DNA of 64,000 nt from Nannocystis bainbridge (GCF_028368995.1 NZ_JAQNDL010000002.1:737724-801723), one strand, 5' to 3'; shown: positions 7,324 to 62,521, numbered from the stretch's first letter. Made by a program: numbers and translations. Notes: generated from the sequence alone by a model not told the origin.

Positions 7324-7460
7324 GGCGAGCGCAGACGGGGCGAGGTTGATCTTCCTGGCGAGCGCGGACGCGTGGGTCGCCGCGAAGTTGTCGGTCGCGG
7401 CGGTGAGGGTCATGTCGAGCGCGGACTCCATGACGAGCGTGCGTGCAGTGTTGTTGTCGA

Positions 7461-7640
7461 CACCGCGATGCACTTCGGGCTCGATGACACCGCGATGCAC
7501 TGCGAGCTCGTCGAGGCCGCGATGCGCCTCGGACACGACGAGACCGCGATGCACTGCGAGCTCGACGCCACCGCGATGCACTGCGAGCTCGTCGATACCG
7601 CGAGGCAATTCGAGCGCGACGCCACCGAGGCTCGCCTCGA
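7461..7640. repeat. 27-bp direct tandem repeat x ~6.5 (consensus CACCGCGATGCACTGCGAGCTCGTCGA)
   Basis: Units at 7461, 7488, 7515, 7542, 7569 and 7596. The period of 27 nt is 9 codons. On the minus strand it reads ELAVHRG-type 9-aa repeats, open in the frame upstream of the 6025-7323 gene. Confidence 0.7.
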
Positions 7641-12021: not shown

Positions 12022-12771
12022 GTGGGAGCGGATCGGCCCCTGTCGCCCCTGAGAGCCGGACTGGCGGTGCTGGCGGCGATCGTGATCGCGTCGGCCGCGA
12101 GCTCGGCGCGAGCGGCCGAGCCGACCTACCGCCGCTACACGGACGCGCAGGGGGTGGTCCACGTGACGCCGGTTCGCGCTGTCGGCGCGGGCAGCCGCCG
12201 CGAGGCCGAGGACATGCCCGGCAGCGGCGGCGAAGCGGGGGCGCCGAAGACGGCCGCGTCCGAGGCAGAGACGGGGGCGCCCCGCCGCGATCTGCAGGTC
12301 GAGGTCGCCGAGGCGCTGGCCGACGAGCGCTCGCGCCGGTGGGAGACGCACATCCGTGGGGCGGCGCGGCTGTATCAGCTGCCGGAGTCGCTGGTGCGCG
12401 CGGTGATTCACACCGAGAGCAACTACCACCCGGGCGCGGTCAGCAGCACCGGGGCGATGGGGCTGACGCAGCTGATGCCGTCGACGGCGCGGTTCCTCGG
12501 GGTCCAGCAGCCGTTCGACCCGCGGCAGAGCATCTACGGGGGGGCCAAGTTCCTGCGGCTGCTGGCCAATCGGTTCGGCGGCGACATGGTGCTGGTGGCG
12601 GCCGGGTATTTCTCGGGGGCCGGGGCGGTGCAGAAGTACGGCGGCGTACCGCCTCACGCGGGGGTGCGTGCGTACGTGAAGGCGGTCCTGCGCCGGTTTT
12701 ACGCGTACGAGCGGCTGCTGCAGGACGGGGCCGGCGGGGCGAGCCCCGCGCGGGCGATCGCCGGGCCGTGA
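12022..12771 (+). CDS. lytic transglycosylase domain protein (SLT family) with signal peptide
   Basis: Signal peptide LAVLAAIVIASAASSARA. The SLT catalytic region is LPESLVRAVIHTESNYHPGAVSSTGAMGLTQLMPSTA. Confidence 0.8.
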   Translation: MGADRPLSPLRAGLAVLAAIVIASAASSARAAEPTYRRYTDAQGVVHVTPVRAVGAGSRREAEDMPGSGGEAGAPKTAASEAETGAPRRDLQVEVAEALADERSRRWETHIRGAARLYQLPESLVRAVIHTESNYHPGAVSSTGAMGLTQLMPSTARFLGVQQPFDPRQSIYGGAKFLRLLANRFGGDMVLVAAGYFSGAGAVQKYGGVPPHAGVRAYVKAVLRRFYAYERLLQDGAGGASPARAIAGP

Positions 12772-19623: not shown

Positions 19624-20346
19624 GTGCCAGGTGATCGAGGCGACGAAGCTGCGCTGACCATTCGTGCGCAGACGCGCACGGCTCGACACCAGCGGCTCGC
19701 CGCAGCGATCGAGACGCGTCGGCTCGAGCGGCGCCGACGCGCCAAGATCCTGGCGATCTGGGCGCTAATCTCGACGATCGCGGTCTTCGTCACCGCGCTC
19801 ATCCGTGGCGTGTTTGACCCGCTCGAGCTGGTGTTTTTCGCCACCACGCTGGGGACGATCGCGTTCGCGTCGTTCTCGGGGGTGCTCGCTCGCCCGCTGC
19901 CGTTGATGGAGCGGCAAGCGCTGGCGGGCGCCGACGCGGCGCTGGCCCTCGACCACCTGCCGCCCCGCGTGGCCGAGCTGGCCCGAGAGACACGTGCGCT
20001 ACGGCTCGCGGTCGAGGCCGCCGATCCGGCCGACGAGGCGATCGACGCGTGGGTGTGGAGCTGGATCCGCAGCGTGCGCGAGCTCGGGCCGGAGGAGCGC
20101 GAGCTGGTCGCGCATGTCGGGATCTCCACCGGCGACATCGAGGCGGTGCTGCTCGGCGAGGCGCTCGACGCCGGCCCGGTGGACCTGTCCCCGGCGACAG
20201 GGGAGCGGACGACGGCTCGCGGGCCGCGGCTGGCGCCGGTCGAGCTGGCGGCGTTGATCCGCCGGGTCGAGCTGCTGGCCGAGCACTTCGAGGCGTTCGA
20301 GGTGGCGCTGCTGCGCTACCGACCCGGGACCTACCGCGGGTCGTGA
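19624..20346 (+). CDS. hypothetical membrane protein
   Basis: Two TM segments near the N-terminus (ILAIWALISTIAVFVTALI, LVFFATTLGTIAFASFSGVL). The start is uncertain. The stop lies in front of a palindromic repeat cluster. Confidence 0.4.
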   Translation: MPGDRGDEAALTIRAQTRTARHQRLAAAIETRRLERRRRAKILAIWALISTIAVFVTALIRGVFDPLELVFFATTLGTIAFASFSGVLARPLPLMERQALAGADAALALDHLPPRVAELARETRALRLAVEAADPADEAIDAWVWSWIRSVRELGPEERELVAHVGISTGDIEAVLLGEALDAGPVDLSPATGERTTARGPRLAPVELAALIRRVELLAEHFEAFEVALLRYRPGTYRGS

Positions 20347-20427
20347 AGGACATGTCCGAAGGGGCATGCCTGAAGGGACATGCCCGTCACGACATGCCCG
20401 TCACGACATGTCCTTCAGGACTCGCGG
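20345..20427. repeat. cluster of five GGACATGTCC / GGGCATGCC palindromic units forming a large nested hairpin between convergent genes
   Basis: GAAGGACATGTCC GAAGGGGCATGCC TGAAGGGACATGCCC GTCACGACATGCCC GTCACGACATGTCCTTCAGGAC. The outer arms TGAAGGACATGTC / GACATGTCCTTCA are perfect complements. Confidence 0.75.
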
Positions 20428-22348: not shown

Positions 22349-23446
22349 CTAAGGCGAGCACTTCAGCGTGCTGCCGAGGATGGTCGAGGTCGCGTTGCCG
22401 CCGTGCGAGCTCTTGATCTTGGTCACCTGGTAGTAGACCGACTTGGCGATGCCGAAGTCGGCGAGCGGGCCGAGGGCGATCCGCGGGTCCGCGCCGTCGA
22501 GCTCGATGGCGACGGCGGGGTTCGAGCACGGGAAGCCGCCGGCGTCGGTCGAGGCCCCCAGCGTAAACGCGGTGGCCTTGGCGGTCGGGTTGCCGGTGCG
22601 CAGCTTGCAGAACGCGTCGGCGTCGGCCTGGTCGCAGCCGGACGGGCCGCCCCACGAGCAGGTGCCGGCGCAGTACAGCTGCGTGACCTGCGAGAAGTCG
22701 AAGATGCAGTCCTCGGTGCAGCCGACGCCCATGAACGGGGCGGCGCCGTCGCAGAACTCGAAGCCCTTGGGGTTGTTGATGTCGACCTTGTCGACGGTCC
22801 CGTCGCCGCAGTGCGGGCCGAGCTTGCTGCAGCCGGGGGCGCAGCCGTTGTAGTCGTTGTCGTTGAAGCCGTCGTCGCAGACCTCGACGCCCTCCCAGAG
22901 GATGCCGTCGCCGCACACCGCGGCGACACAACCCTCGAGGCACGCGTCTTCGTCCTCGTCGTTGGCGTCGTCGCACTCCTCGCCAGGCTGGGTCCAGCCG
23001 TCGCCGCACACGGGCAGCAGACACTCGGCAGTACAGCTGTCGGTGTTCTCGCGGTTGCCGTCGTCGCAGTCCTCGCCCTCGTGCTGGATGCCGTCGCCGC
23101 ACTCGGGCAGGCGGCACAGCGAGGTGCAGCTGTCGAAGTCATTGGTGTTGCCGTCGTCGCAGGCCTCGCTGCCCTCGAGCACACCGTTGCCGCACTCGTG
23201 GGCCGGATCGGTCGTGGAGGAGGTGGGCTCGCTGGTCGGGCCCTGCGAGGTGTTGCTGGTGCCCTCGCTCGGATCGCTGGACGCAGTGCCGTCGGTCTCG
23301 GTGGTCGGATGCCCGGTGACGGTCTGGATCCCGGTGCCTTCGTCTTCGGTGGTCGAACCGGTGGTCGACGTCGGCTCCGCGGTGGGGTTGTTGTTCTGCG
23401 TCGGCGTGCAGGCCGCGAGCGCCAGCATCCATCCTAATCTGCGCAT
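22349..23446 (-). CDS. lipoprotein with Myxococcus cysteine-rich repeats
   Basis: Signal and lipobox [13 protein letters not shown]. Thr/Ser-rich linker. Repeated C-G-[ND]-G-x5-E-x-CDDGN modules ([80 protein letters not shown]) match the myxobacterial cysteine-rich repeat family. Confidence 0.75.
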
Positions 23447-28967: not shown

Positions 28968-29050
28968 GGGAGTGGCGAATGGGACATGTCGCATCGGGCA
29001 TGTCGAATGGGCCATGTCTTTGAGAACATGCTCATGGAGGCATGTCCTTT
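28968..29050. repeat. cluster of palindromic repeat units (GGGACATGTCG / GGGCATGTCG / GGCCATGTC / GGCATGTCC) between co-directional genes
   Basis: Several CATG-centred half-sites with GGG/CCC flanks within 80 nt, between the peptidase M28 start and the M3 peptidase stop. Confidence 0.65.
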
Positions 29051-32604: not shown

Positions 32605-32700
32605 GGGGGCATGTCCGAAGGGGCATGCCCTTTTGTTTATGCCCGATCGGCCATGTTCGTTCGGACATGCGCTTGCGAGCATGTCCTGAAGGTCATGGCC
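32605..32700. repeat. cluster of palindromic repeat units (GGGGCATGTCC GAAGGGGCATGCCC ... CGGACATGCGC ... GCATGTCCTGAAGGTCATGGCC) between convergent genes
   Basis: It runs from the stop of the dienelactone hydrolase gene to the stop codon of the minus-strand PepSY_TM gene. It contains GGGCATG....CATGCCC inverted repeats. Confidence 0.7.
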
Positions 32701-35728: not shown

Positions 35729-37225
35729 TCAGGCCCGCCGGGCCGCAGCGGTCGCCCATGCCCGCAGGGCCGCGATTTCGCCGGCACGGCTGTGACTGAG
35801 CGGGATCGTCGCGGAGAGCGCGCGAGCGAGGTCGTGGCGCGCGAGGGGTCGCGACTCGGCGAACGCGTCGAGCCGAGCTTCCACGATCGCGCCCTCGATC
35901 TCGGCGCCGGACAGTCCGTCGGCCGCGCGTACGAGGTCGACCAGGTCGGGCAACGGATCAGCGAGCACCGGGGCGGCGCCCATGTGCGAGCGCGGCGCAT
36001 GTTCGAGATGGATCTCCGCGATGGCGGCGCGTTCGTCCGCGTCCGGCACATCGACAAAGAAGATCTCGTCGAGCCGCCCGCGACGGGTCAGCTCGGGCGG
36101 CAATCGCGTGACCTGGTTGGCCGTGGCGACCACGAACACCGGCCGCCGGCGCTCCTGCAGCCACGTGAGCAGCCCGCCGAGCACGCGCGCCGCGGTGCCC
36201 GCGTCGCTGGCACCACCGTCGCTGCCGGCCAGGCCCTTGTCGAGCTCGTCGATCCACAGGGCGACCGGGGCGATGCGCTCGACCGTATCGGTGACGCGGC
36301 GCAGGTTGGCCTCGCTCTCGCCGAGGGTGCCGCCGTAGAGCCGCCCGGGCTCGAGGCGCAGCAGGCCGAGGCCGAGCGCGTGGGCGCAGACGCGGGCGGC
36401 CAGGCTCTTGCCGCAGCCCTGCACGCCGACCAGCAGGACGCCGCGCGGGTCGGGGATGCCGGCGGCGCGGGCCTCGGGGCGGAGCGCGAGGGCGCGGCGG
36501 GCCAGCCACTGCTTGAGCTGCGCGAGCCCGCCGAGCATGTCCGAAGCGACAGGTTCGACGCGCTCGAGCAGACCTCCGCGTCGCAGCAGCTCGGCCTTGC
36601 CCGCGGACAGCTCGGCGAGCGCGCCGGGGTCGTCGGCGACGTGGGCCGCGCGTCGCAGCAGGCGCCGCGCCTGGTGCTCGGACAGGCCGAGCGCGGCGTG
36701 GGCCAGCAGCGGGGCCCGGCTCGCGAGCGCGATCGCGGGGCCAGGACGGCCGGCGATCCGCAGCTCGTCGGCGAGGTCGGCGGCGAGGCCGGCGAGCTCG
36801 TCGGCGTCGGGCAGCTCGAGCTCGACGAGCTCGAGCTCGGGGATGGCGACGACGGCGCCGGCGAGCTCCCCGACGACGACGACGGCCGGGCCGACGCTGC
36901 GCTGGGCGAGCTCGCGGAGGGCCCGCAGGGCGACGGGGTCGAGCGGGGGCGGATCGAGGAGCACCCACAGGCCGGGGTCGGGGTCGCGCAGGAGGCCGCG
37001 CAGGAGCTCGACCAGCGGCTCGGGGGCGCCGAGGCCGTCGCGCCCGCCGGCCGCGCTCCAGGTGTGCACCGGCCAGTCGAGCCGATCGCCGACGTCCTCG
37101 CACAGCCGCACCGCCCGCGCCTCGTCGACGGCGCGCAGCCCGAGGCCGCGCGCGCCGGCCTGCAGCGCCTCGCGCAGGCGCTGCCGGGCGCGCGCGAAGG
37201 GGGTGTCCTTCGGGTCATGTCTCAT
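35729..37225 (-). CDS. AAA-family ATPase with ~250-aa N-terminal domain of unknown function
   Basis: Walker A GVLLVGVQGCGKS, Walker B ALWIDELD, sensor/second region of homology VVATANQVTRLPPELTRRGRLDE. The first codons (MRHDPKD) are encoded by a palindromic repeat copy, so the start is uncertain. Confidence 0.7.
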   Translation of the reverse strand: MRHDPKDTPFARARQRLREALQAGARGLGLRAVDEARAVRLCEDVGDRLDWPVHTWSAAGGRDGLGAPEPLVELLRGLLRDPDPGLWVLLDPPPLDPVALRALRELAQRSVGPAVVVVGELAGAVVAIPELELVELELPDADELAGLAADLADELRIAGRPGPAIALASRAPLLAHAALGLSEHQARRLLRRAAHVADDPGALAELSAGKAELLRRGGLLERVEPVASDMLGGLAQLKQWLARRALALRPEARAAGIPDPRGVLLVGVQGCGKSLAARVCAHALGLGLLRLEPGRLYGGTLGESEANLRRVTDTVERIAPVALWIDELDKGLAGSDGGASDAGTAARVLGGLLTWLQERRRPVFVVATANQVTRLPPELTRRGRLDEIFFVDVPDADERAAIAEIHLEHAPRSHMGAAPVLADPLPDLVDLVRAADGLSGAEIEGAIVEARLDAFAESRPLARHDLARALSATIPLSHSRAGEIAALRAWATAAARRA

Positions 37226-37320
37226 GGAGCATGTCCCTCGGACCCTGTCATCCGCGCGGCGAACCGGGTGTCCTTCGGGTCATGTCTCATGGAGCATGTC
37301 CCTGGGACCATGCCATCCAC
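37201..37320. repeat. tandem duplication (2 x ~59 bp) of a palindromic-repeat-containing unit GGGTGTCCTTCGGGTCATGTCTCATGGAGCATGTCCC[T/-]GGGAC...
   Basis: Near-identical copies at 37201-37260 and 37261-37320. Copy 1 contains the AAA ATPase start codon. Copy 2 encodes the last 13 codons (…AWMAWSQGHAP) of the upstream hypothetical gene. Confidence 0.75.
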
Positions 37321-38033
37321 GCGGCGAGCAGGTGGCCCTGGGCGGCGACCGAGACCGGGCCGTCGTCGGCGAAGCAGAAGCCGTTCAGCCACAGGCGGGC
37401 GCCGCGGAGGCGGGCGAGGCGGCCGTGCAGCAGCGCGAGGTCGCCGGCGCAGGCGCGGGCGAGGGCGGCGCGCGGGCGGGGCGGGAGCGTGTCTGGCCAA
37501 AAGGACAGGCGGTAAGCGGGCTTGCCGTCGACGCGGAGGACGTCGAGCCGCAGCGCGCCGCTCGGATCGGCGGCGACGAGCTGGGCGCGGCGCAGCAGGT
37601 CGGGGAACGGTCGCGCCCGCGAGCCGCGGAAGTCGAGGGCGAAGAACACCGGCGCGGCGGCGGAGCCGGGGAGGGCGCGGGTGAGGCCGCGGGCGAGGGC
37701 GCGAGCGACCGCCTCGAGCGCGCCCGGGACCTGGGGCAGGGTCAGGAGGCCGGCGGTCGCGGCGGGCGTGCCGGCGGCCGCCAGGGCGGCGACGACGGCC
37801 CGCAGGCGGCCGGGGGCGCGCGGGCCCAGGGCGACGAGGCGAGCGACCGCGAGGTCGTCCGGCGCGTCACGGGCGAGCAGGTCGTCGAGCTCGCGCAGGG
37901 CCTCGGCGGCGTCGCCGACGTCGGGCGGGGCGGAGGGCACGAGCCAGAGGTGCGGGGCGGGCTCGTCACGGGCGCGGTCGAGGGCCGCGAGGGTGTCCGA
38001 TGGGACAGGTCCGTCGGAGCCCCGACCGCTCAC
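37287..38033 (-). CDS. hypothetical protein
   Basis: 248 aa. Its ATG at 38033 overlaps the smpB stop. Ala/Leu-rich with no motif. The C-terminus reads into the tandem repeat. Confidence 0.4.
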   Translation of the reverse strand: MSGRGSDGPVPSDTLAALDRARDEPAPHLWLVPSAPPDVGDAAEALRELDDLLARDAPDDLAVARLVALGPRAPGRLRAVVAALAAAGTPAATAGLLTLPQVPGALEAVARALARGLTRALPGSAAAPVFFALDFRGSRARPFPDLLRRAQLVAADPSGALRLDVLRVDGKPAYRLSFWPDTLPPRPRAALARACAGDLALLHGRLARLRGARLWLNGFCFADDGPVSVAAQGHLLAAWMAWSQGHAP

Positions 38034-43744: not shown

Positions 43745-44833
43745 ATGGTGGCCCTCCTCGAGCTGGTCGAATCGATCGCGCTGCGCGTGGACGCCGAAGG
43801 TCGCGTGACCGCGGCGTCGCCCGCCGCGGCCCGCTGGCTGGCCGCGCGGACCGGGGCGCCCGGCCTCGGCGCGCTGTTCGGCGCGGCGTCGCCGGAGTCG
43901 CTGCGCGGCCTGGTCGAGAGCGGCGGCAAGGCGGTGCCCGCAGAGCCATGGCCCGAAGGACCTGTCGTATGGGACCTGTCCTTGGAGCCATCCGACGCGG
44001 TGCTGGCGGTCGGGGTGGCGATCCGCCCGGCGCGGGCGCTGGCGTCGCAGCTGGCGAGCGCGACGCTGCTCGACAAGAGCCTGGCGCTGGCGGTCCTGCC
44101 GCGTGAGGCGGCGGCGCCGCTGGGCGAGCGGCTCCAGCCCAAGGCGTACCGCGAGGCGACGGTGATGTTCATCGACGCGGTCCAGTTCTCGCGCCTGGCC
44201 GCCCGCGTCGACCCGGTCACCTGCCTCAAGCAGCTCGATTTCTTCTTCTCGGCCTTCGACCAGATCACCTCGGCGTTCGTGGTCGAGAAGCTGCGCACGG
44301 CCGGCGACACCTACGTGGCGGTGTCGGGGATCCCCCAGCGCCGCCTGTCCCACGCGGTCGACGCGACGTTCGCGGCGCTGCGCTGCGCCCAGGTGGTCGC
44401 GTCGGGGCTGACACCGATGGTCGACGAGTGGGACTGGAGCTTCCGCATCGGCCTCCACTCGGGGCCCTGCATCTCCGGCGTGCTCGGCTCGAAGAAGCCG
44501 GTCTACGACCTGTGGGGCGACACGGTCAGCGTCGCCAGCCACGTCGAGCGCATCGGCCAGCCCGACTCGGTGTGCGTGTCGGGGGCCGTCCGCCAGCTGA
44601 TCGAGCCGTTCTTCGCGCTCGAGTTCATGCAGACGACGGTGACCCGCAGCGTCGGCGAGATCGAGGTGTTCGCGGTCCGCGGGCTGCTCCCCGAGCTGCA
44701 GGCCGACGGCCAGGCGCTGGTCGCCAACGCGGAGTTCGCCGAGCGCTACGAGTCGCGCTTCGGCACGCCGTGCCCGGCCGCCGCGCTCGAGGCGCTCGGG
44801 GTCGAGCTCGGACAAGGGCTCGAAGACTTCTGA
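43745..44833 (+). CDS. class III adenylate/guanylate cyclase with ~130-aa N-terminal domain of unknown function
   Basis: Start 2 nt after the upstream stop. Cyclase motifs ATVMFIDAVQFSRL, KLRTAGDTYVAVSG, IGLHSGPCISGVLGSKKPVYDLWGDTV. The N-terminal domain contains a degenerate palindromic-repeat copy (43946-43992, encoding WPEGPVVWDLSLEP). Confidence 0.8.
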   Translation: MVALLELVESIALRVDAEGRVTAASPAAARWLAARTGAPGLGALFGAASPESLRGLVESGGKAVPAEPWPEGPVVWDLSLEPSDAVLAVGVAIRPARALASQLASATLLDKSLALAVLPREAAAPLGERLQPKAYREATVMFIDAVQFSRLAARVDPVTCLKQLDFFFSAFDQITSAFVVEKLRTAGDTYVAVSGIPQRRLSHAVDATFAALRCAQVVASGLTPMVDEWDWSFRIGLHSGPCISGVLGSKKPVYDLWGDTVSVASHVERIGQPDSVCVSGAVRQLIEPFFALEFMQTTVTRSVGEIEVFAVRGLLPELQADGQALVANAEFAERYESRFGTPCPAAALEALGVELGQGLEDF

Positions 44834-44847
44834 GCGGTGGGATGGCT

Positions 44848-44915
44848 GATCGGGCATGTCCGAAGGGGCATGCCCGTCGGGCAATGTCGTCGAGGACATG
44901 TCCTCGAGTTCAGGC
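44848..44915. repeat. palindromic repeat cluster (GGGCATGTCC GAAGGGGCATGCCC ... GGACATGTCC) 3' of the cyclase gene
   Basis: GGGCATG...CATGCCC inverted repeat plus a GAGGACATGTCCTC perfect palindrome. Between convergent gene ends. Confidence 0.7.
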
Positions 44916-45058
44916 CGCGTCGCTTGGGGGCGGGTAGCGACGAGCAGGGGCCGCCGGGCGCGCCGAGTGAGAACGCGGGCGACGAGCGTGCCCGAGGTGT
45001 GCGACGCCTCGCGGGCTCGATCAGGCGCCTGCGCCGGCGCCCGGACCCGAGCGCCCGT

Positions 45059-45643
45059 TCAATCGCGGCGGTAGTCCTTGAACAGGTAGGCGTAAAAGCC
45101 GACGACCTCGCGTAGCAGCGACCACGGCTCGCGCAGCTCGAGGTCGAGCTCGGCGTGGGCGGCGGTGGCCTCGACGCCGAAGCGACGCAGGGCCAGCTTG
45201 GTGCGGGTGAGGTGGTAGTACTGGCTGACGGCGATGGCGGAGCGCTCGCCGCGGGCGCGCAGGTCGGCGGCGACGAAGCGGGCGGTGGCGTGGGTGTTGA
45301 CGCCGCCGCGGTCGACGGCGATGCGCTCGGCCGGGACGCCGCGGGCCACCAGGTAGTCGCGCATGACGTCGGCCTCGTGCGGGCTGCCGGGGTCCTGGCC
45401 GCCGCTGACGATGAGCCGCGGGACCAGGCCGGCGGCGTAGAGCTCGGCGGCGCGATCGAGGCGCAGCTGTAGGCGGCGCGCGGGCTCGCCGGCGGGGCTG
45501 ACGTGGTTGCCGAGCACGACGGCGACGTCGGCGGGGCGGCCCTCGTCGGTGCAGCCGTCGACGCTCAGGACGAGCAGGTGCACCAGGCCCCAGGTGCACA
45601 GCAGGGCGAGAAGGCGGAGGATGGTCTTTCGCACATGTGCCAT
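45059..45643 (-). CDS. DUF218 / YdcF-ElyC-SanA family protein
   Basis: ATG 45643 (MAHVRKTILRLLALL...) with N-terminal TM. DVAVVLGNHVSPAGEP...LIVSGG... matches the DUF218 core. The ORF-track start MRTCRM is encoded by a repeat copy. Confidence 0.7.
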   Translation of the reverse strand: MAHVRKTILRLLALLCTWGLVHLLVLSVDGCTDEGRPADVAVVLGNHVSPAGEPARRLQLRLDRAAELYAAGLVPRLIVSGGQDPGSPHEADVMRDYLVARGVPAERIAVDRGGVNTHATARFVAADLRARGERSAIAVSQYYHLTRTKLALRRFGVEATAAHAELDLELREPWSLLREVVGFYAYLFKDYRRD

Positions 45644-45654
45644 GCGACATGTCC

Positions 45655-46620
45655 TCATGGACCTGTGATGGTCGCGGCGGGCGGGCGCACGGCCAGGCAG
45701 GTGAGCTGGGCCGAGTCGGGGGCGTAGCGGAAGCCGGCGTGGGCGGCCAGGAGGCGGCGCACGTAGCCGTGGAGGCGCTCCGGTCGCATGGGCCGCGAGG
45801 CGACGCCGGCGGCCCCGGTGGTGTCGAACACGCGCACGCGGCCGAGGCGATCGCGGGCGGGGTCGACGATCATCATGTGATGGTACATGCGCTCGCCACC
45901 GCGGGCACGGGCGCGGTGCGAGACGCTGCAGAGATGAAGGGCGTCGGCTGCGAGGGCGGCGAGCAGGCCGGCGGCGCCGAGGCTATCGAGGCGAAGGTCG
46001 AGCAGGTCGAGGCCGCGTGGGAGGGCGCCGGCGGGCAGGCGCGCTGCGATCTGGAGGAGGGCGGCGCGGCCGGCGTGGGCGCCGTCCTGGCACGACTCGA
46101 AGCCGCCGGGCGGATCGCAGGGGACGAGGTCGGCGAGCTCGAGCCGCGGCAGCCACAACAGGCGCACGCCCTCGAGGAAGCCGCCGAGGCAGCCGAGGTC
46201 GTATGTCCCCGGGGACAGCTTGATGGGGCGACCGGCGTCGGTGCGGCAGAAGCCCGCGGGCTCGCCGAGGCGGATGTGCCCGAGGCGCTCCCAGGCGTCG
46301 ATCTCGGCCCAGCGATCCGGCTCGAAGGCGAGTTCGAGGCCGCGGAAGACGCCGGCGGGGTCGCGCGCGCGCAGGGCCGCTGCGAGCGCGGGCGGGACGC
46401 GCGGGTAGTGGGCGAGCGAGGGCCAGCGCGTGAGCAAGTCAGCGTCGCGGGGGTCGACGGGCTCGCGGTGCACGGACGGGCGCGCCGGGGCGCCGGGGAC
46501 GGGCGCTGGCTCGACGCCGGGAGGGAGGTCGGCGGGCGCATCCGGAGCGGTCGGCTCGCCGCAGGTCAGCGCGGCGGTCAGGCCAGCGGAGAGCAGCTGC
46601 GACCGGCCCATCGGACGCAT
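45655..46620 (-). CDS. hypothetical secreted protein / lipoprotein
   Basis: N-terminal LLSAGLTAALTC signal/lipobox-like segment. 321 aa. No motif recognised. Confidence 0.4.
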   Translation of the reverse strand: MRPMGRSQLLSAGLTAALTCGEPTAPDAPADLPPGVEPAPVPGAPARPSVHREPVDPRDADLLTRWPSLAHYPRVPPALAAALRARDPAGVFRGLELAFEPDRWAEIDAWERLGHIRLGEPAGFCRTDAGRPIKLSPGTYDLGCLGGFLEGVRLLWLPRLELADLVPCDPPGGFESCQDGAHAGRAALLQIAARLPAGALPRGLDLLDLRLDSLGAAGLLAALAADALHLCSVSHRARARGGERMYHHMMIVDPARDRLGRVRVFDTTGAAGVASRPMRPERLHGYVRRLLAAHAGFRYAPDSAQLTCLAVRPPAATITGP

Positions 46621-46837
46621 CTACCGCAGCGGTGGGCTTTCGTCGAGTCGTCGCGCAAGCCGGCGCCGGCGGCTCCTCGAGGCGAGCATGGCCGCGCACT
46701 TGCGTCGATGCGTGCAAGGGGTGAGGCCGTGAGGCGCAGCGAGGGCGCTCGTCATCATGCAGGACGAAGCGGGCTGCGATGCCGCGGTCACGGCCGGTGG
46801 GAGCGCGTTCGGGCATGGCGAACGTACGTGGCTTTCA

Positions 46838-47080
46838 GGGCATGTCCCGGGGGACATGCGTGGAAACCGGTCGGGCCGGGCCGATTGATGGGTGTCCGAT
46901 CGGGCATGTCCCAGGGGACATGCTTATGAACCGGTCGGGCCGGGCCGATCGACGGTGTCCGATCGGGCATATCCGAGGGACATGATTGGGAACCGGTCGG
47001 GCCGGGCCGATCGACGGGTGTCCGATCGGGCATGACGCAACGGACATGCCTTTTAAAAATTGTCGGAAGGGGCGTGCCCG
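46838..47080. repeat. tandem array, ~64 bp x ~3.5, built from palindromic-repeat modules (GGGCATGTCCC-GG-GGGACATGC + AACCGGTCGGGCCGGGCCGATCGA + GGGTGTCCGATC)
   Basis: Units start at ~46838, 46902, 46965 and 47028 (the last partial, diverging into TTTTAAAAATTGTCGGAAGGGGCGTGCCC). Identity between full units is ~85-90%. The array fills the 470-bp gap between two minus-strand genes. Confidence 0.8.
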
Positions 47081-47090
47081 CGAGTGCAGG

Positions 47091-49181
47091 TCAGTGCGAG
47101 GCGGCGATCACGGCGATCGTGCGCCGCAGCACCAGGAACTGCCAGGTGTCGGTCAGGGGCAGGGCGGGGATCGTCACGCTGCCGTCGGGGCCGGCGACGA
47201 CTTCGCCGTGGTCCTGACCGAACGACCAGGCGACGCGCTCACCGGGGCGGCAGCGGAACGCCTGGGTGCGGCGCGGGGTGACATCGACGAACGCGGGCAG
47301 ATCGGCCATCACGCGGTCACCCTCGCTCGGGTAGCCGGGCGCGGGCGGGTTGGCCCCGTCGCCGTCGTGGACGCGCAGGGCGAACTGCAGGCGATCGACG
47401 GTGTCGACCACCGAGGCGCCGTCCCAGCGGAGGAACCGGCCGAGCGCGCCAGCGACGGCGCCCTCCCAGCCGGTGTCGCCGGCGACCGCGACCGTGCCGG
47501 CGAAGCCCTTGCTGGCGCTCCAGTCCTGCTTGCCGTTGCCAGCGCCGACGCCCGGGTCGTCGTCGAGCGACGAGTAAGAAAAGGCGGGGAACGCCCGGTC
47601 GCGGCGCAGCGTGGCCTCGTCGCCGTGGATCGGCGCCCACGAGCCGGTCCACCAGCTGTCCCCGAGGACAGGATCGGCGACGCCGTGGCCGCCCTCGTCC
47701 CAGATGGCGAAGTGGCCGACGCCGCGGCTCTGCAGCGCGTCGTAGAGGCTCTCGCCGGTGCGCGGGCTCGGCAGCACGGCGGCGCCGAAGTGGATGGTCG
47801 GGTCGTCCTTGCCGTGCTTGAGGAACAGGAACTGGTCGCGGGCCTCGCTCGAGTCGGCGAGCGCGCGCGTCAGGTCCATGTGATCCCAGGCCGACAGGCC
47901 GCCGCCGCCGTCGAGGTCGAGCTCGGGGGCGCCCCACCAGCTGGACAATTGGGTGATCCGCGAGGGTCGGTGGTTGCGCGCGATCGCCTGGCCGAGGCGG
48001 GCGTCGACGTAGGCGAAGTGACGCCCGCGCAGGAGGCCGAGCAGCATCGCCCCGGCGCCGCCCATCGAGCTGCCGAAGACGTGCACGCGCTCGGGGTCGG
48101 CCTCGGGGTGGTGACGCAGCACGTACTCGACGAGGTGGAGCACGCGGCGCACGGTGTAGTCGGGGGCGGCGCCGCCGGCGGTGGGGTCGACGTCGGGCAA
48201 GGACGCGGCGTAGCCCCACCAGTAGGTGTTGTCGGGGTCGTGCGGGGAGATCCGGATCTCGCTGGCCGAACCAGTGCCGCCGGGGTTGGCGGTGCCGAAG
48301 CCGTGGAGGCCGATCCGCACCGGCACGCCCTCGGGCGGGACGTCGAGCGGGACCATGACCTTGGCGACGAACTCGCGGCCGGCGTAGCCCGGGCTGTCGA
48401 GGTAATCATCTGTCTTTTGGGACAGGGTGTAACGGACGTAGCCGCTGCCGTCGAGGAACTCGGTGTCGACGACCTCGGGCCACGGCGGCTGGATGGTGTC
48501 GCGCACGACGACCTCGAAGGTGGTCTCGACGCGCGACTCGCCGTCGTGGGCGAGCACGGTGACGGTCCAACTGTCGCCGCCCTGGGTGAAGTCGGGGGTG
48601 AAGCGGAAGGTGCGGGTCGGCTCGTCCCAGGTGGCGCCCGGCGGCAGGCCCTGCAGGTGGACCCGCAGGGCGCCCGGGTCGGCGACGTCGACGACTTCGA
48701 GGACGAGACCGACCTCGGTGTCCTCGTCGACGCCGACCTCGGCCGGCACGAGGATCCGCGGGGCCGAGCGATCGACGGCGAGGGTCAGCGGTGCCGAGTC
48801 CTCGTCGTCGCGGCGCACGAACACCGGGTAGTCGCCGCGCTTGCGCGGGCCGCTGCGGGCGTGCAACTCGCCGCCGGAGACGAAGGTGGTGGGTAGCGCC
48901 TGGCCGGCGACGACGACGACGCTGGAGCGAGTGAAGCCGGCGCCGGTGACGTGGAGGTCGAACTCGACGCTGCCAGGGGCCGGGTCGGGCGAGAGGGCGT
49001 CGAGCTCGAGCGGCGCGAGCTCGGGGCCGCCGATCGGACCCTGGCTGGCGGGCGGTGGTCGGGGCGAGGACGGCGTTTCATCCGCGGGAGCGGCACCGGA
49101 CGGGCCGCTGTAACAGCCGGCGAGGACGAGCCACGCGAGCGTGAGGCACGCGCGGGAGACCTGGCCAGAGCACGACAACAT
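47091..49181 (-). CDS. alpha/beta-hydrolase-fold lipoprotein (esterase/depolymerase-like) with N-terminal beta-sandwich domains
   Basis: ATG 49181 with lipobox signal MLSCSGQVSRACLTLAWLVLAGC. Nucleophile elbow HVFGSSMGGAGA (G-x-S-x-G). 697 aa. Confidence 0.7.
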   Translation of the reverse strand: MLSCSGQVSRACLTLAWLVLAGCYSGPSGAAPADETPSSPRPPPASQGPIGGPELAPLELDALSPDPAPGSVEFDLHVTGAGFTRSSVVVVAGQALPTTFVSGGELHARSGPRKRGDYPVFVRRDDEDSAPLTLAVDRSAPRILVPAEVGVDEDTEVGLVLEVVDVADPGALRVHLQGLPPGATWDEPTRTFRFTPDFTQGGDSWTVTVLAHDGESRVETTFEVVVRDTIQPPWPEVVDTEFLDGSGYVRYTLSQKTDDYLDSPGYAGREFVAKVMVPLDVPPEGVPVRIGLHGFGTANPGGTGSASEIRISPHDPDNTYWWGYAASLPDVDPTAGGAAPDYTVRRVLHLVEYVLRHHPEADPERVHVFGSSMGGAGAMLLGLLRGRHFAYVDARLGQAIARNHRPSRITQLSSWWGAPELDLDGGGGLSAWDHMDLTRALADSSEARDQFLFLKHGKDDPTIHFGAAVLPSPRTGESLYDALQSRGVGHFAIWDEGGHGVADPVLGDSWWTGSWAPIHGDEATLRRDRAFPAFSYSSLDDDPGVGAGNGKQDWSASKGFAGTVAVAGDTGWEGAVAGALGRFLRWDGASVVDTVDRLQFALRVHDGDGANPPAPGYPSEGDRVMADLPAFVDVTPRRTQAFRCRPGERVAWSFGQDHGEVVAGPDGSVTIPALPLTDTWQFLVLRRTIAVIAASH

Positions 49182-49395
49182 GCTTTGATTCTTCCCACGA
49201 CGATCGCCGATCCGCCAGCGACGCCGGCGAGAAATTGTGTGACGTCGTTGCAAGGGCAACGAGCGGGCGTCCTGCGATCCGGCGCACACGTGGGTCCACG
49301 TGGCCTTCCTGGGGCGATCGTTCGCCGTGGCCAGCCCGCGGACCTCGGTGCTCGCCGGAGGGCGATTGCCACATGGCGGAAAGGACAGGCGACGA

Positions 49396-53686: not shown

Positions 53687-53699
53687 GCGGGCTGTCTCG

Positions 53700-53875
53700 C
53701 AGGACATGGCCGAAGGGTCATGTCCGCCGAGGCGCGCCCGAGCGGCAGGGGAGCGCCCGACCGCGCTCGCGGCGGTCGCATCCTCGCCAAGAAAATGCCC
53801 CGCGAGTCGGCTGACTCGTGGGGCATGTCGAAAAGAGCAGGTCCCTTCGGGCATGTCGTGAAGGACATGCCCCAA
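53700..53875. repeat. palindromic repeat cluster plus hairpin CCCCGCGAGTC-GGCT-GACTCGTGGGG between convergent genes
   Basis: Contains GGACATGGCCGAAGGGTCATGTCC, GGGGCATGTCG, CCCTTCGGGCATGTCG and GAAGGACATGCCCC modules. Confidence 0.7.
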
Positions 53876-53878
53876 AGT

Positions 53879-61925: not shown

Positions 61926-62521
61926 CCGGAGGAGCTCCCGGAGCTGGTCGAGCTGGTCGAGTCGGTGGTCGAGCCCGTGGTGGTCGTCGTCGAGTCGGTC
62001 GAGGTGCTCGAGGTCGAGGTCGAGTCGGTGGTCGACGAGGTGGTCGTCGTGTCGGTGGTCGACGAGGTGGTCGTCGTGTCGGTGGCGGTGCCGTCGGTCG
62101 TCGTCGAGTCGGTGGCGGTGCCGTCGGTCGTCGTCGTGCTGTCGCTGGTGCCGGTCATCGACGAGGCGGTCGCGGAGCCGTCGGTCGGGCCGCTGGCGCT
62201 CTCGCTGTTGCTGTTGCTGCCCGGGCCGGCGAGGTCACGCTTGGACGGGAGGTCGTCGCGGATCGGCATGTCGGGCAGGCCGGGGCCGGCGGAGTCGGTG
62301 TCGACGCTCTCGGACACGACGCACTGACCGATGATGCCGGGCTTGAAGCAGACGTCGCCGGTCAGGATCTTCTCGCCCTCGGCGTAGCACTCGAGGCCGA
62401 CGCCGCAGTCGCTGCCGCAGCGGCACGGGTCGCCGGCCTTGGGCCGACATGCGCCCAGCACGGCCAGCATGGCCAGCATGACGCCGGTGGCGAAGGTCGG
62501 GCGCGGGCGCAGCGGCGTCAC
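61922..62521 (-). CDS. lipoprotein with Cys-rich N-terminal module and Thr/Ser-rich low-complexity tail
   Basis: Its ATG overlaps the greA stop (ATGA). Signal MLAMLAVLGAC. CRCGSDCGVGLECY module. The C-terminal ~100 aa are T/S/D repeats (TDGTATDSTTTDGTATDTTTT...), encoded by imperfect DNA tandem repeats at ~61960-62160. Confidence 0.55.
   Translation of the reverse strand: MTPLRPRPTFATGVMLAMLAVLGACRPKAGDPCRCGSDCGVGLECYAEGEKILTGDVCFKPGIIGQCVVSESVDTDSAGPGLPDMPIRDDLPSKRDLAGPGSNSNSESASGPTDGSATASSMTGTSDSTTTTDGTATDSTTTDGTATDTTTTSSTTDTTTTSSTTDSTSTSSTSTDSTTTTTGSTTDSTSSTSSGSSSG

Follow-up and report, generated by a model that had tools for sequence, protein, structure and literature searches.

A lineage-specific tandem array within a Nannocystis-wide family of phased GGRCATGYCC hairpins

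How transcription ends is poorly understood in bacteria of very high GC content such as the myxobacteria, where canonical U-tract terminators are scarce. Intrinsic terminators described in high-GC bacteria include 'I-shaped' forms, which do without a U-tract, and tandem-hairpin forms. The BIMEs of E. coli have been reported as gyrase or nucleoid-protein sites; the uptake sequences of Neisseria (DUS) and Haemophilus (USS) are over-represented 10–12-mers that often occur as inverted pairs inside terminators; and mycobacterial minisatellites of the MIRU type are tandem units of 40–100 bp that lie between same-strand genes, as does the array described here. REP elements carry a tag: one end of the palindrome bears a conserved terminal tetranucleotide, GTAG or CGTC (PMC3733652).

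Here, we describe an intergenic tandem array in a 64,000-nt stretch of the Nannocystis bainbridge genome (hereafter, the window) and the family of hairpins to which it belongs. The overall explanation that we consider best, and favor with moderate confidence, is a lineage-specific tandem amplification within one member of a Nannocystis-wide family that marks the ends of transcription units. We are highly confident in the structural and evolutionary part of this account, which covers the anatomy of the array and how recently it arose, the existence of the family, and the finding that its members sit at 3′ ends and are conserved between species.

Anatomy and ancestry of the array

The initial annotation had proposed an array of ~64-bp units, assembled from palindromic modules, in the 470-bp gap between two minus-strand genes, and our analysis agrees on each of these points (Table 1). 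TRF reported a repeat at 46838–47049 with a period of 64, 3.3 copies, 84% matches, 3% indels and a score of 299. A repeat search placed the hairpin arms at 46838, 46902, 46965, and 47028, giving intervals of 64, 63, and 63 nt between unit starts, and recovered the inverted repeat of the previously named 'hairpin A' in every unit; all three sub-modules described earlier are present. The array is made up of four family hairpins with three copies of a 40-nt linker between them (unit of 63–64 nt) and has a hairpin at both ends. A 24-nt module, AACCGGTCGGGCCGGGCCGATCGA, occurs three times in the window at up to one mismatch, in each case inside the array and against an expectation of zero. Hairpin A is no local oddity: it consists of two adjacent copies of a 10-bp palindrome, GGRCATGYCC, and is a member of the family described below.

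Table 1 Features of the 46838 locus (window coordinates)
Feature	Position	Strand	Basis or remark
Downstream gene, 321 aa	45655–46620	−	No Pfam family; orthologues called in L023 and L024
Conserved element CTCGACGAA-N10-GCTGCGGTAG	46621–46647	−	Directly 5′ of the ATG of the 321-aa gene
Tandem array	46838–47051	−	TRF, repeat search, unit alignment A1; not in any relative
Hairpin u1, GGGCATGTCC cggg GGACATGCGT	46838–46861		Two motif copies in 14-nt phase; 8-bp stem plus tetraloop; sense-strand RNA fold −13.1 kcal/mol
Linker copy 1, 40 nt, with 24-nt module AACCGGTCGGGCCGGGCCGATTGA and GGGTGTCCGATC	46862–46901		Repeat and module searches, A1
Hairpin u2, GGGCATGTCC cagg GGACATGCTT	46902–46925		Sense fold −13.0 kcal/mol
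Linker copy 2, 39 nt	46926–46964		Repeat and module searches, A1
Hairpin u3, degraded, 1-nt deletion, GGGCATATCC gag GGACATGATT	46965–46987		Sense fold −6.4 kcal/mol; A1
Linker copy 3, 40 nt	46988–47027		Repeat and module searches, A1
Hairpin u4 (ancestral slots 4–5), degraded, GGGCATGACG caac GGACATGCCT	47028–47051		Sense fold −9.3 kcal/mol
Ancestral post-stop cluster, five 14-nt slots kept in the window	47028–47093	−	Phase comparison of seven orthologous loci
Upstream gene, 696 aa, alpha/beta-hydrolase / prolyl-oligopeptidase-like (S9-peptidase-like)	47091–49181	−	Weak Pfam Peptidase_S9 match

The units differ at ~16% of their positions, in addition to indels (A1). This divergence argues against an actively slipping array and also makes an assembly collapse or expansion unlikely, since artefactual copies would be identical. 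Apart from being repetitive, the sequence has nothing of a falsely expanded repeat or, alternatively, of a CRISPR-like or small-RNA locus, and we regard these explanations as hardly credible. The array is not CRISPR-like, as previously held: whole 63–64-nt units repeat, including the 40-nt segments between the hairpins, and there are no unique spacers. Nor does it resemble a small-RNA gene, in that Rfam gave no match to it at the gathering threshold or at E ≤ 1, a tRNA/tmRNA search found none, and a promoter/terminator scan of positions 44000–48000 returned nothing at the array and no promoter-like site there (its single match, at 47582–47596, is unrelated). CRISPR, small-RNA, and coding-repeat readings of the array were accordingly rejected on anatomy. 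On the sense strand, none of the four hairpins is followed by a U-tract, and the array as a whole folds better as antisense RNA (−144.8, z −5.9) than as sense RNA (−109.1, z −3.2).

The gap extends from the stop of the upstream gene at 47091 to the start of the downstream gene at 46620, with 217 nt between the array and the latter. Homologues of the upstream gene have 694–698 amino acids and are named alpha/beta hydrolase in Nannocystis punicea; from alignment with them, we placed the ATG at 49181 and not at 49289. The gene is 83–88% identical in N. punicea, N. exedens, N. radixulma, N. pusilla, and Nannocystis sp. RBIL2, and its closest relative is a Logan contig (L023) with 90% amino-acid identity, above which a protein search found none. 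At the other end of the gap, an element of the form CTCGACGAA-N10-GCTGCGGT(T)AG is kept in seven Nannocystis genomes, the remaining gap being unalignable, and the L023 gene call for the downstream gene begins at the ATG right after it. This element may be a promoter or a translation-initiation region; from its conservation, the downstream gene would have its own expression, and transcription of the upstream gene would have to stop inside the gap.

In seven of the seven relatives that share this gene order (N. punicea, N. exedens, N. radixulma, N. pusilla, RBIL2, and two metagenome relatives), a phased cluster follows directly after the same stop codon and begins with the TGA itself; in the window, likewise, the TGA (47093–47091) forms the first three bases of slot 1. 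Printed in 14-nt phase on the sense strand, all seven loci have the same slot order, typically TGACMTGGCY in slot 1, GGCCATGTCC in slot 2, an AT-rich slot 3 (CGACATTTTT aaga), a hairpin in slots 4–5, and then slot 6. Across these relatives the slot cores are kept, with spacers and the rest of the gap unconserved. The window retains slots 1–5, which read TGACCTGCAC tcgc GGGCACGCCC cttc CGACAATTTT taaa AGGCATGTCC gttg CGTCATGCCC on the sense strand; slot 3 is the AT-rich stretch CGACAATTTT taaa at 47052–47065, and slots 4–5 are hairpin u4. The AT-rich 'tail', which the initial annotation had taken for a decayed last unit, is thus ancestral: every orthologous locus has conserved it in this position.

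In L006 and L023, slots 4–5 read GGACATGCTC-nnnn-GAGCATGTCC followed by TTTT and form a perfect 10-bp hairpin (−17.7 to −17.8 kcal/mol) that, going by sequence, is a canonical intrinsic terminator. Hairpin u4 is orthologous to this terminator-like structure and, relative to it, has lost both the perfect stem and the U-tract. The duplicated hairpins u1 and u2 (−13.1 and −13.0 kcal/mol) are stronger than the ancestral u4 (−9.3 kcal/mol).

Neither the 64-nt array nor the 24-nt module is found in any of the seven relatives, the 90%-identical L023 included, arguing that the array is a lineage-specific amplification. A mobile repeat that had slipped was the origin suggested previously. Of this, tandem duplication stands, as does the membership of the hairpin in a dispersed family; the 24-nt module is locus-specific and was rejected as a mobile repeat, since neither the rest of the window nor 22 related loci nor a metagenome collection holds another copy of the 24/22-nt sequence. 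In the scenario we propose, an ancestral six-slot cluster starting at the hydrolase TGA would have been extended by duplication of a 63–64-nt segment—hairpin slots 4–5 plus 40 nt of local sequence—to produce the four hairpins with their three linkers. Family hairpins probably slipped or exchanged unequally in the process; such an event between two of them would leave an array that starts and ends with a hairpin. The array would then be a neutral or mildly reinforcing by-product, and it may compensate for the decayed ancestral terminator hairpin.

A phased palindrome family at gene ends

GGRCATGYCC has 76 matches in the window (both strands, up to one mismatch), as compared to 8.6 ± 3.3 in shuffled sequences. 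Over the window and eight Nannocystis loci, the spacing between nearest-neighbor sites was 14 nt in 63 cases, 28 nt in 17, and 13 or 15 nt in none, and the 14-bp spacing is strict also between hairpins. A position weight matrix of 150 slots reads G G R C A T G Y C C with a CATG core that is 90–97% conserved, followed by four variable, AT-enriched spacer bases, about half of them A or T. As the motif core is palindromic, neighboring copies are direct and inverted repeats at once, and two adjacent copies give a 10-bp stem with the 4-nt spacer as its loop on either strand. Clusters comprise two to eight copies, with 15 clusters in the 64-kb window, and the hairpins are stable on both strands (mean of ~−18 kcal/mol). 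One of them, at 32607 (GGGCAUGUCC-GAAG-GGGCAUGCCC-UUUUGUUU; −20.6), carries a U-tract and looks like a canonical terminator.

The 14-nt phasing is seen in all Nannocystis loci compared and is essentially absent from the more distant Polyangia loci L007, L009, and L010. A scan for perfect 8-bp-stem hairpins in L007, L009, L010, L013, L014, L016, and L022 revealed no recurrent stem sequence, and in viral contigs the motif pair had four isolated matches, with no presence of the family. Neither a literature search nor two REP surveys described the motif or reported REP-like elements from Nannocystis or any other myxobacterium; with no published account found and no matching Rfam family, we consider the GGRCATGYCC hairpin family previously undescribed. 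The motif matches the consensus of the eukaryotic p53 half-site (RRRCWWGYYY), and its inner RCATGY is the recognition sequence of NspI-type restriction enzymes, both of which we presume to be coincidence.

Clusters start ~0–40 nt 3′ of stop codons, at the ends of transcription units. Gene maps of the window and L001–L006 were made with a crude caller (third-codon-position GC; cross-checked only for L023, L024, and L026). Where neighboring genes were 30 nt or more apart, a strong phased pair lay within ~80 nt on 27 of 94 stop sides and on 2 of 88 start sides (Mann–Whitney p = 1e-10). By orientation, clusters occurred in 13 of 17 convergent and 10 of 40 tandem gaps, but in none of the 12 divergent ones; in tandem gaps of 250–470 nt, the cluster was always on the stop-proximal end. 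Independent gene calls of L023, L024, and L026 agree, placing clusters in convergent gaps and behind operon-terminal genes, and none at operon-internal junctions or in divergent gaps. The pattern extends to metagenomes: two adjacent consensus copies were found at 120 or more loci, mostly on contigs of 69–78% GC, and among the matches listed, 137 of 184 adjacent pairs were nearest a stop codon. The median distance from pair to stop was 18 nt over all stop-classified pairs from the metagenome matches listed and Nannocystis.

Two convergent gaps of the window may be described individually. At 53687–53878, one family cluster follows each stop, and orthologous gaps in L001, L004, L005, and L006 likewise have one cluster per stop; a hairpin outside the family follows the four-slot cluster and shows a compensatory change (CGAGTC...GACTCG in the window, CGAGAG...CTCTCG in the relatives). 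At 20344–20421, a five-slot cluster exactly fills a 68-nt gap, both stops lying in its flanking 'tgaa' spacers, and, whichever strand is taken, folds into a single long nested hairpin (−35.7 and −39.7 kcal/mol).

Perfect motif sites fall outside called genes in 12 of 13 cases, even though called genes cover 72% of the window; the single site inside a gene compares with ~0.5 expected, as estimated from base composition. This bears on the idea of an uptake signal akin to the Neisseria DUS or Haemophilus USS, which would fit a strongly over-represented 10-mer that is often paired in terminator-like hairpins at gene ends. Coding sequences, however, show no enrichment (the 1 of 13 sites being about the chance number), phased arrays of up to eight copies are foreign to DUS and USS, and a literature search showed no documented competence in Nannocystis, so that we think an uptake function very improbable.

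The family is prone to tandem amplification, at different unit sizes. A second lineage-specific duplication of a family cluster, at 37188–37327 on the minus strand (TRF, 65 nt × 2.1), overlies the ATGA stop/start overlap of two operon genes, a region that is single-copy in the relatives L002, L004, L005, and L006. It creates a chimeric mini-ORF of 22 codons (MRHDPKDTRFAARMTGSEGHAP*), which starts on the ATGA of the upstream gene and ends on a second ATGA, the start of the true downstream gene (37225); by bridging both, it preserves translational coupling, as in mycobacterial MIRUs. At the hydrolase locus itself, N. pusilla (L005) carries an independent 185-bp × 2 duplication (12079–12450) that copies the last ~110 nt of the hydrolase gene together with the post-stop cluster, the stop of the second copy being mutated. 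On metagenome contigs, a hairpin with a 13–16-nt linker is repeated four times between convergent stops (L097, 1615–1766; 37–40 nt × 4), and eight perfect copies of the 14-nt unit GGGGCATGTCCTGC adjoin a stop codon (L067, 1–117). Within the window, TRF also detected period-14 slippage at 20344–20421 and 28976–29018. Other TRF repeats of the window—7458–7627 (27 nt × 6.3), 22997–23169 (93 nt × 1.9), and 61982–62187 (27–30 nt × ~5)—are probably coding-sequence repeats, given periods that are multiples of three.

Could the family be a selfish, REP-like element without host function? It would then have spread by a RAYT-type transposase (REP-associated tyrosine transposase) or by gene conversion, its copies would survive only where they are harmless, that is, downstream of genes, and slippage would have left the array behind as debris. 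The family does look like REP families: it is an extragenic palindrome of shared sequence and high copy number, amplified in tandem at several scales and, as REPs are, restricted to convergent and tandem gaps. Yet the clusters are inherited vertically, slot for slot, across 78–90% protein identity amid intergenic DNA that is otherwise randomised, which implies purifying selection or continual homogenisation; they abut the stop (median of 18 nt) instead of being spread over permissive gaps of 250–470 nt; and they lack a GTAG or CGTC tag. We consider a selfish origin doubtful, and because of the vertical inheritance and the abutment to stop codons it fits less well than the protein-binding alternative weighed below.

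RNA hairpin or DNA site

The family most likely marks the ends of transcription units. As to how, a hairpin terminator or a protective 3′-end hairpin is the function to which we lean tentatively, giving it slightly less than an even chance; the family would then act like REP/BIME elements and 'I-shaped' terminators, i.e., hairpins without a U-tract. Pointing to this reading are the position at transcription-unit ends, the stable tetraloop hairpins, and the subset of members with a U-tract, as well as the cluster after each convergent stop at 53687–53878 and, for the family, cores that are conserved between species amid diverged spacers and flanks. Five adjacent pairs are perfectly complementary despite arms that are not self-palindromic, and no identical direct copies of non-palindromic arms were found.

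Statistical signatures of an RNA stem are faint. Pairing between neighbors scored 6.72 versus 6.52 ± 0.09 with shuffled partners, so covariation is weak; two of six position-pair tables were significant (odds ratio 2.0, p = 0.016; odds ratio 5.7, p = 0.002), and the direct-repeat correlation was about as strong as the pairing correlation. On the sense strand, G·U showed no excess over A·C (69 vs 71, and 68 vs 57), and sense RNA was not stabler than antisense (−17.8 vs −18.7, with antisense better in 44 of 67 clusters). Most family clusters lack a U-tract. Strand-specific hints are limited to two: across the family, sense spacers have slightly more T than A (110 vs 81, p = 0.04), and the first position of the loop, read on the sense strand, is rich in T (43 T, versus 22 A at position 4). 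The earlier idea of terminator or insulator blocks thus fares unevenly, the gene 3′-end position fitting it and the tests for an RNA-strand signature being negative; the function we assign, like the protein-binding array that the annotation also raised, is inferred.

The negative RNA-strand tests and weak covariation keep a DNA-level role a serious rival, if one that we rate as rather unlikely. Here, a dimeric protein would bind each GGRCATGYCC in its double-stranded form, the arrays at gene ends would serve as roadblock terminators, insulators, or topological barriers, and the tandem array would just add sites. Constraint acting per site and not per pair, the CATG-core palindrome kept across species and loci, neighbor pairing that barely exceeds that of shuffled partners, the lack of strand asymmetry, and the strict 14-bp spacing even between hairpins are all consistent with such binding. 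Moreover, the near-invariant CATG core and the strict 14-nt spacing exceed what a simple hairpin needs, arguing for sequence-specific recognition or common descent. Against this, no candidate protein is known, the five adjacent pairs with asymmetric arms are nonetheless perfectly complementary, some members with U-tracts resemble canonical RNA terminators, loop position 1 is T-rich on the sense strand, and at the orthologous loci each hairpin pair holds the phase, whereas the AT-rich slot 3, with indels in L023 and L005, breaks it.

A more specific version, which we consider improbable, is that phased GGRCATGYCC arrays are a lineage-specific boundary signal of transcription units read by a dedicated factor. 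Conservation of the palindrome at each site, the strict 14-bp spacing, and the missing RNA-strand signature are its grounds; the factor could, as one possibility, be a dimeric DNA-binding protein that makes the arrays a roadblock terminator, an insulator, or a topological barrier. Functional parallels exist in the termination systems of organelles and eukaryotes (mTERF, Reb1, and TTF-I), and we know of no genome-wide, factor-read boundary system of this kind in bacteria.

The array itself is an ordinary local amplification, and the family behind it is the more interesting result. Conserved throughout the genus and recognisable from sequence, the family is present in 13 of 17 convergent gaps and at many transcription-unit ends, and so would offer a direct handle for annotating operon ends in the 12–13-Mb genomes of Nannocystis. 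Its clusters are candidate insulator parts for engineering natural-product gene clusters, and the family is a test case for whether hairpins with a shared sequence act via RNA structure or a dedicated factor. As hot spots of segmental tandem duplication—three independent cases, two of them at the hydrolase locus in different species—the clusters also bear on genome assembly and on strain-typing markers.

Comparison with known systems

Ordinary intrinsic terminators share with the family a GC-rich hairpin with an 8–10-bp stem and a tetraloop a few tens of nucleotides after the stop; stable GC-rich hairpins shortly after the stop, with folds of −13 to −20 kcal/mol, are what we found. Family hairpins are likewise bidirectional by symmetry, and some members have a proper U-tract. 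Whereas the stems of ordinary terminators are unrelated to one another, however, the family has one shared palindromic sequence, mostly without a U-tract and with no bias of G·U over A·C. The DUS and USS resemble it as over-represented 10-mers in terminator-like hairpins at gene ends, and the family departs from them in having essentially no copies in coding sequence, in its long phased arrays, and in having no known link to uptake. Unlike a MIRU, the 46838 array stays clear of the stop and start codons on either side and has no coupled mini-ORF; a MIRU-like mini-ORF overlapping stop and start is present in the second array, at 37188–37327.

The 2013 and 2025 REP surveys make no mention of Nannocystis, Myxococcus, Sorangium, or Haliangium, nor the 2013 survey of Deltaproteobacteria. 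By analogy, it is REP/BIME elements that the family would work most like. Both these elements (E. coli, Pseudomonas; SMAG in Stenotrophomonas) and the family are short, high-copy imperfect palindromes of ~24 nt per hairpin; with its 24-nt hairpin unit, the family lies within the 20–40 bp of short extragenic palindromes of the REP/BIME type. Both are exclusively extragenic, downstream of genes and between convergent genes, both may form tandem-amplified clusters of palindromic units alternating with linkers, and the roles proposed for both include termination, mRNA 3′ stabilisation, and protein binding. The present unit of a hairpin and a 40-nt linker, repeated three times, resembles a BIME-2 array; like L097, it combines hairpins and linkers, although its linker is unique to the locus and not a family motif. 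The matrix of 150 slots contains no GTAG or CGTC tag and no conserved base outside GGRCATGYCC. What sets the family apart from REP/BIME elements is that each arm is itself a 10-bp palindrome, so that copies are direct and inverted at the same time and keep a strict 14-nt phase; to our knowledge, this combination of self-palindromic 10-mer arms and 14-nt phasing is unlike any REP family.
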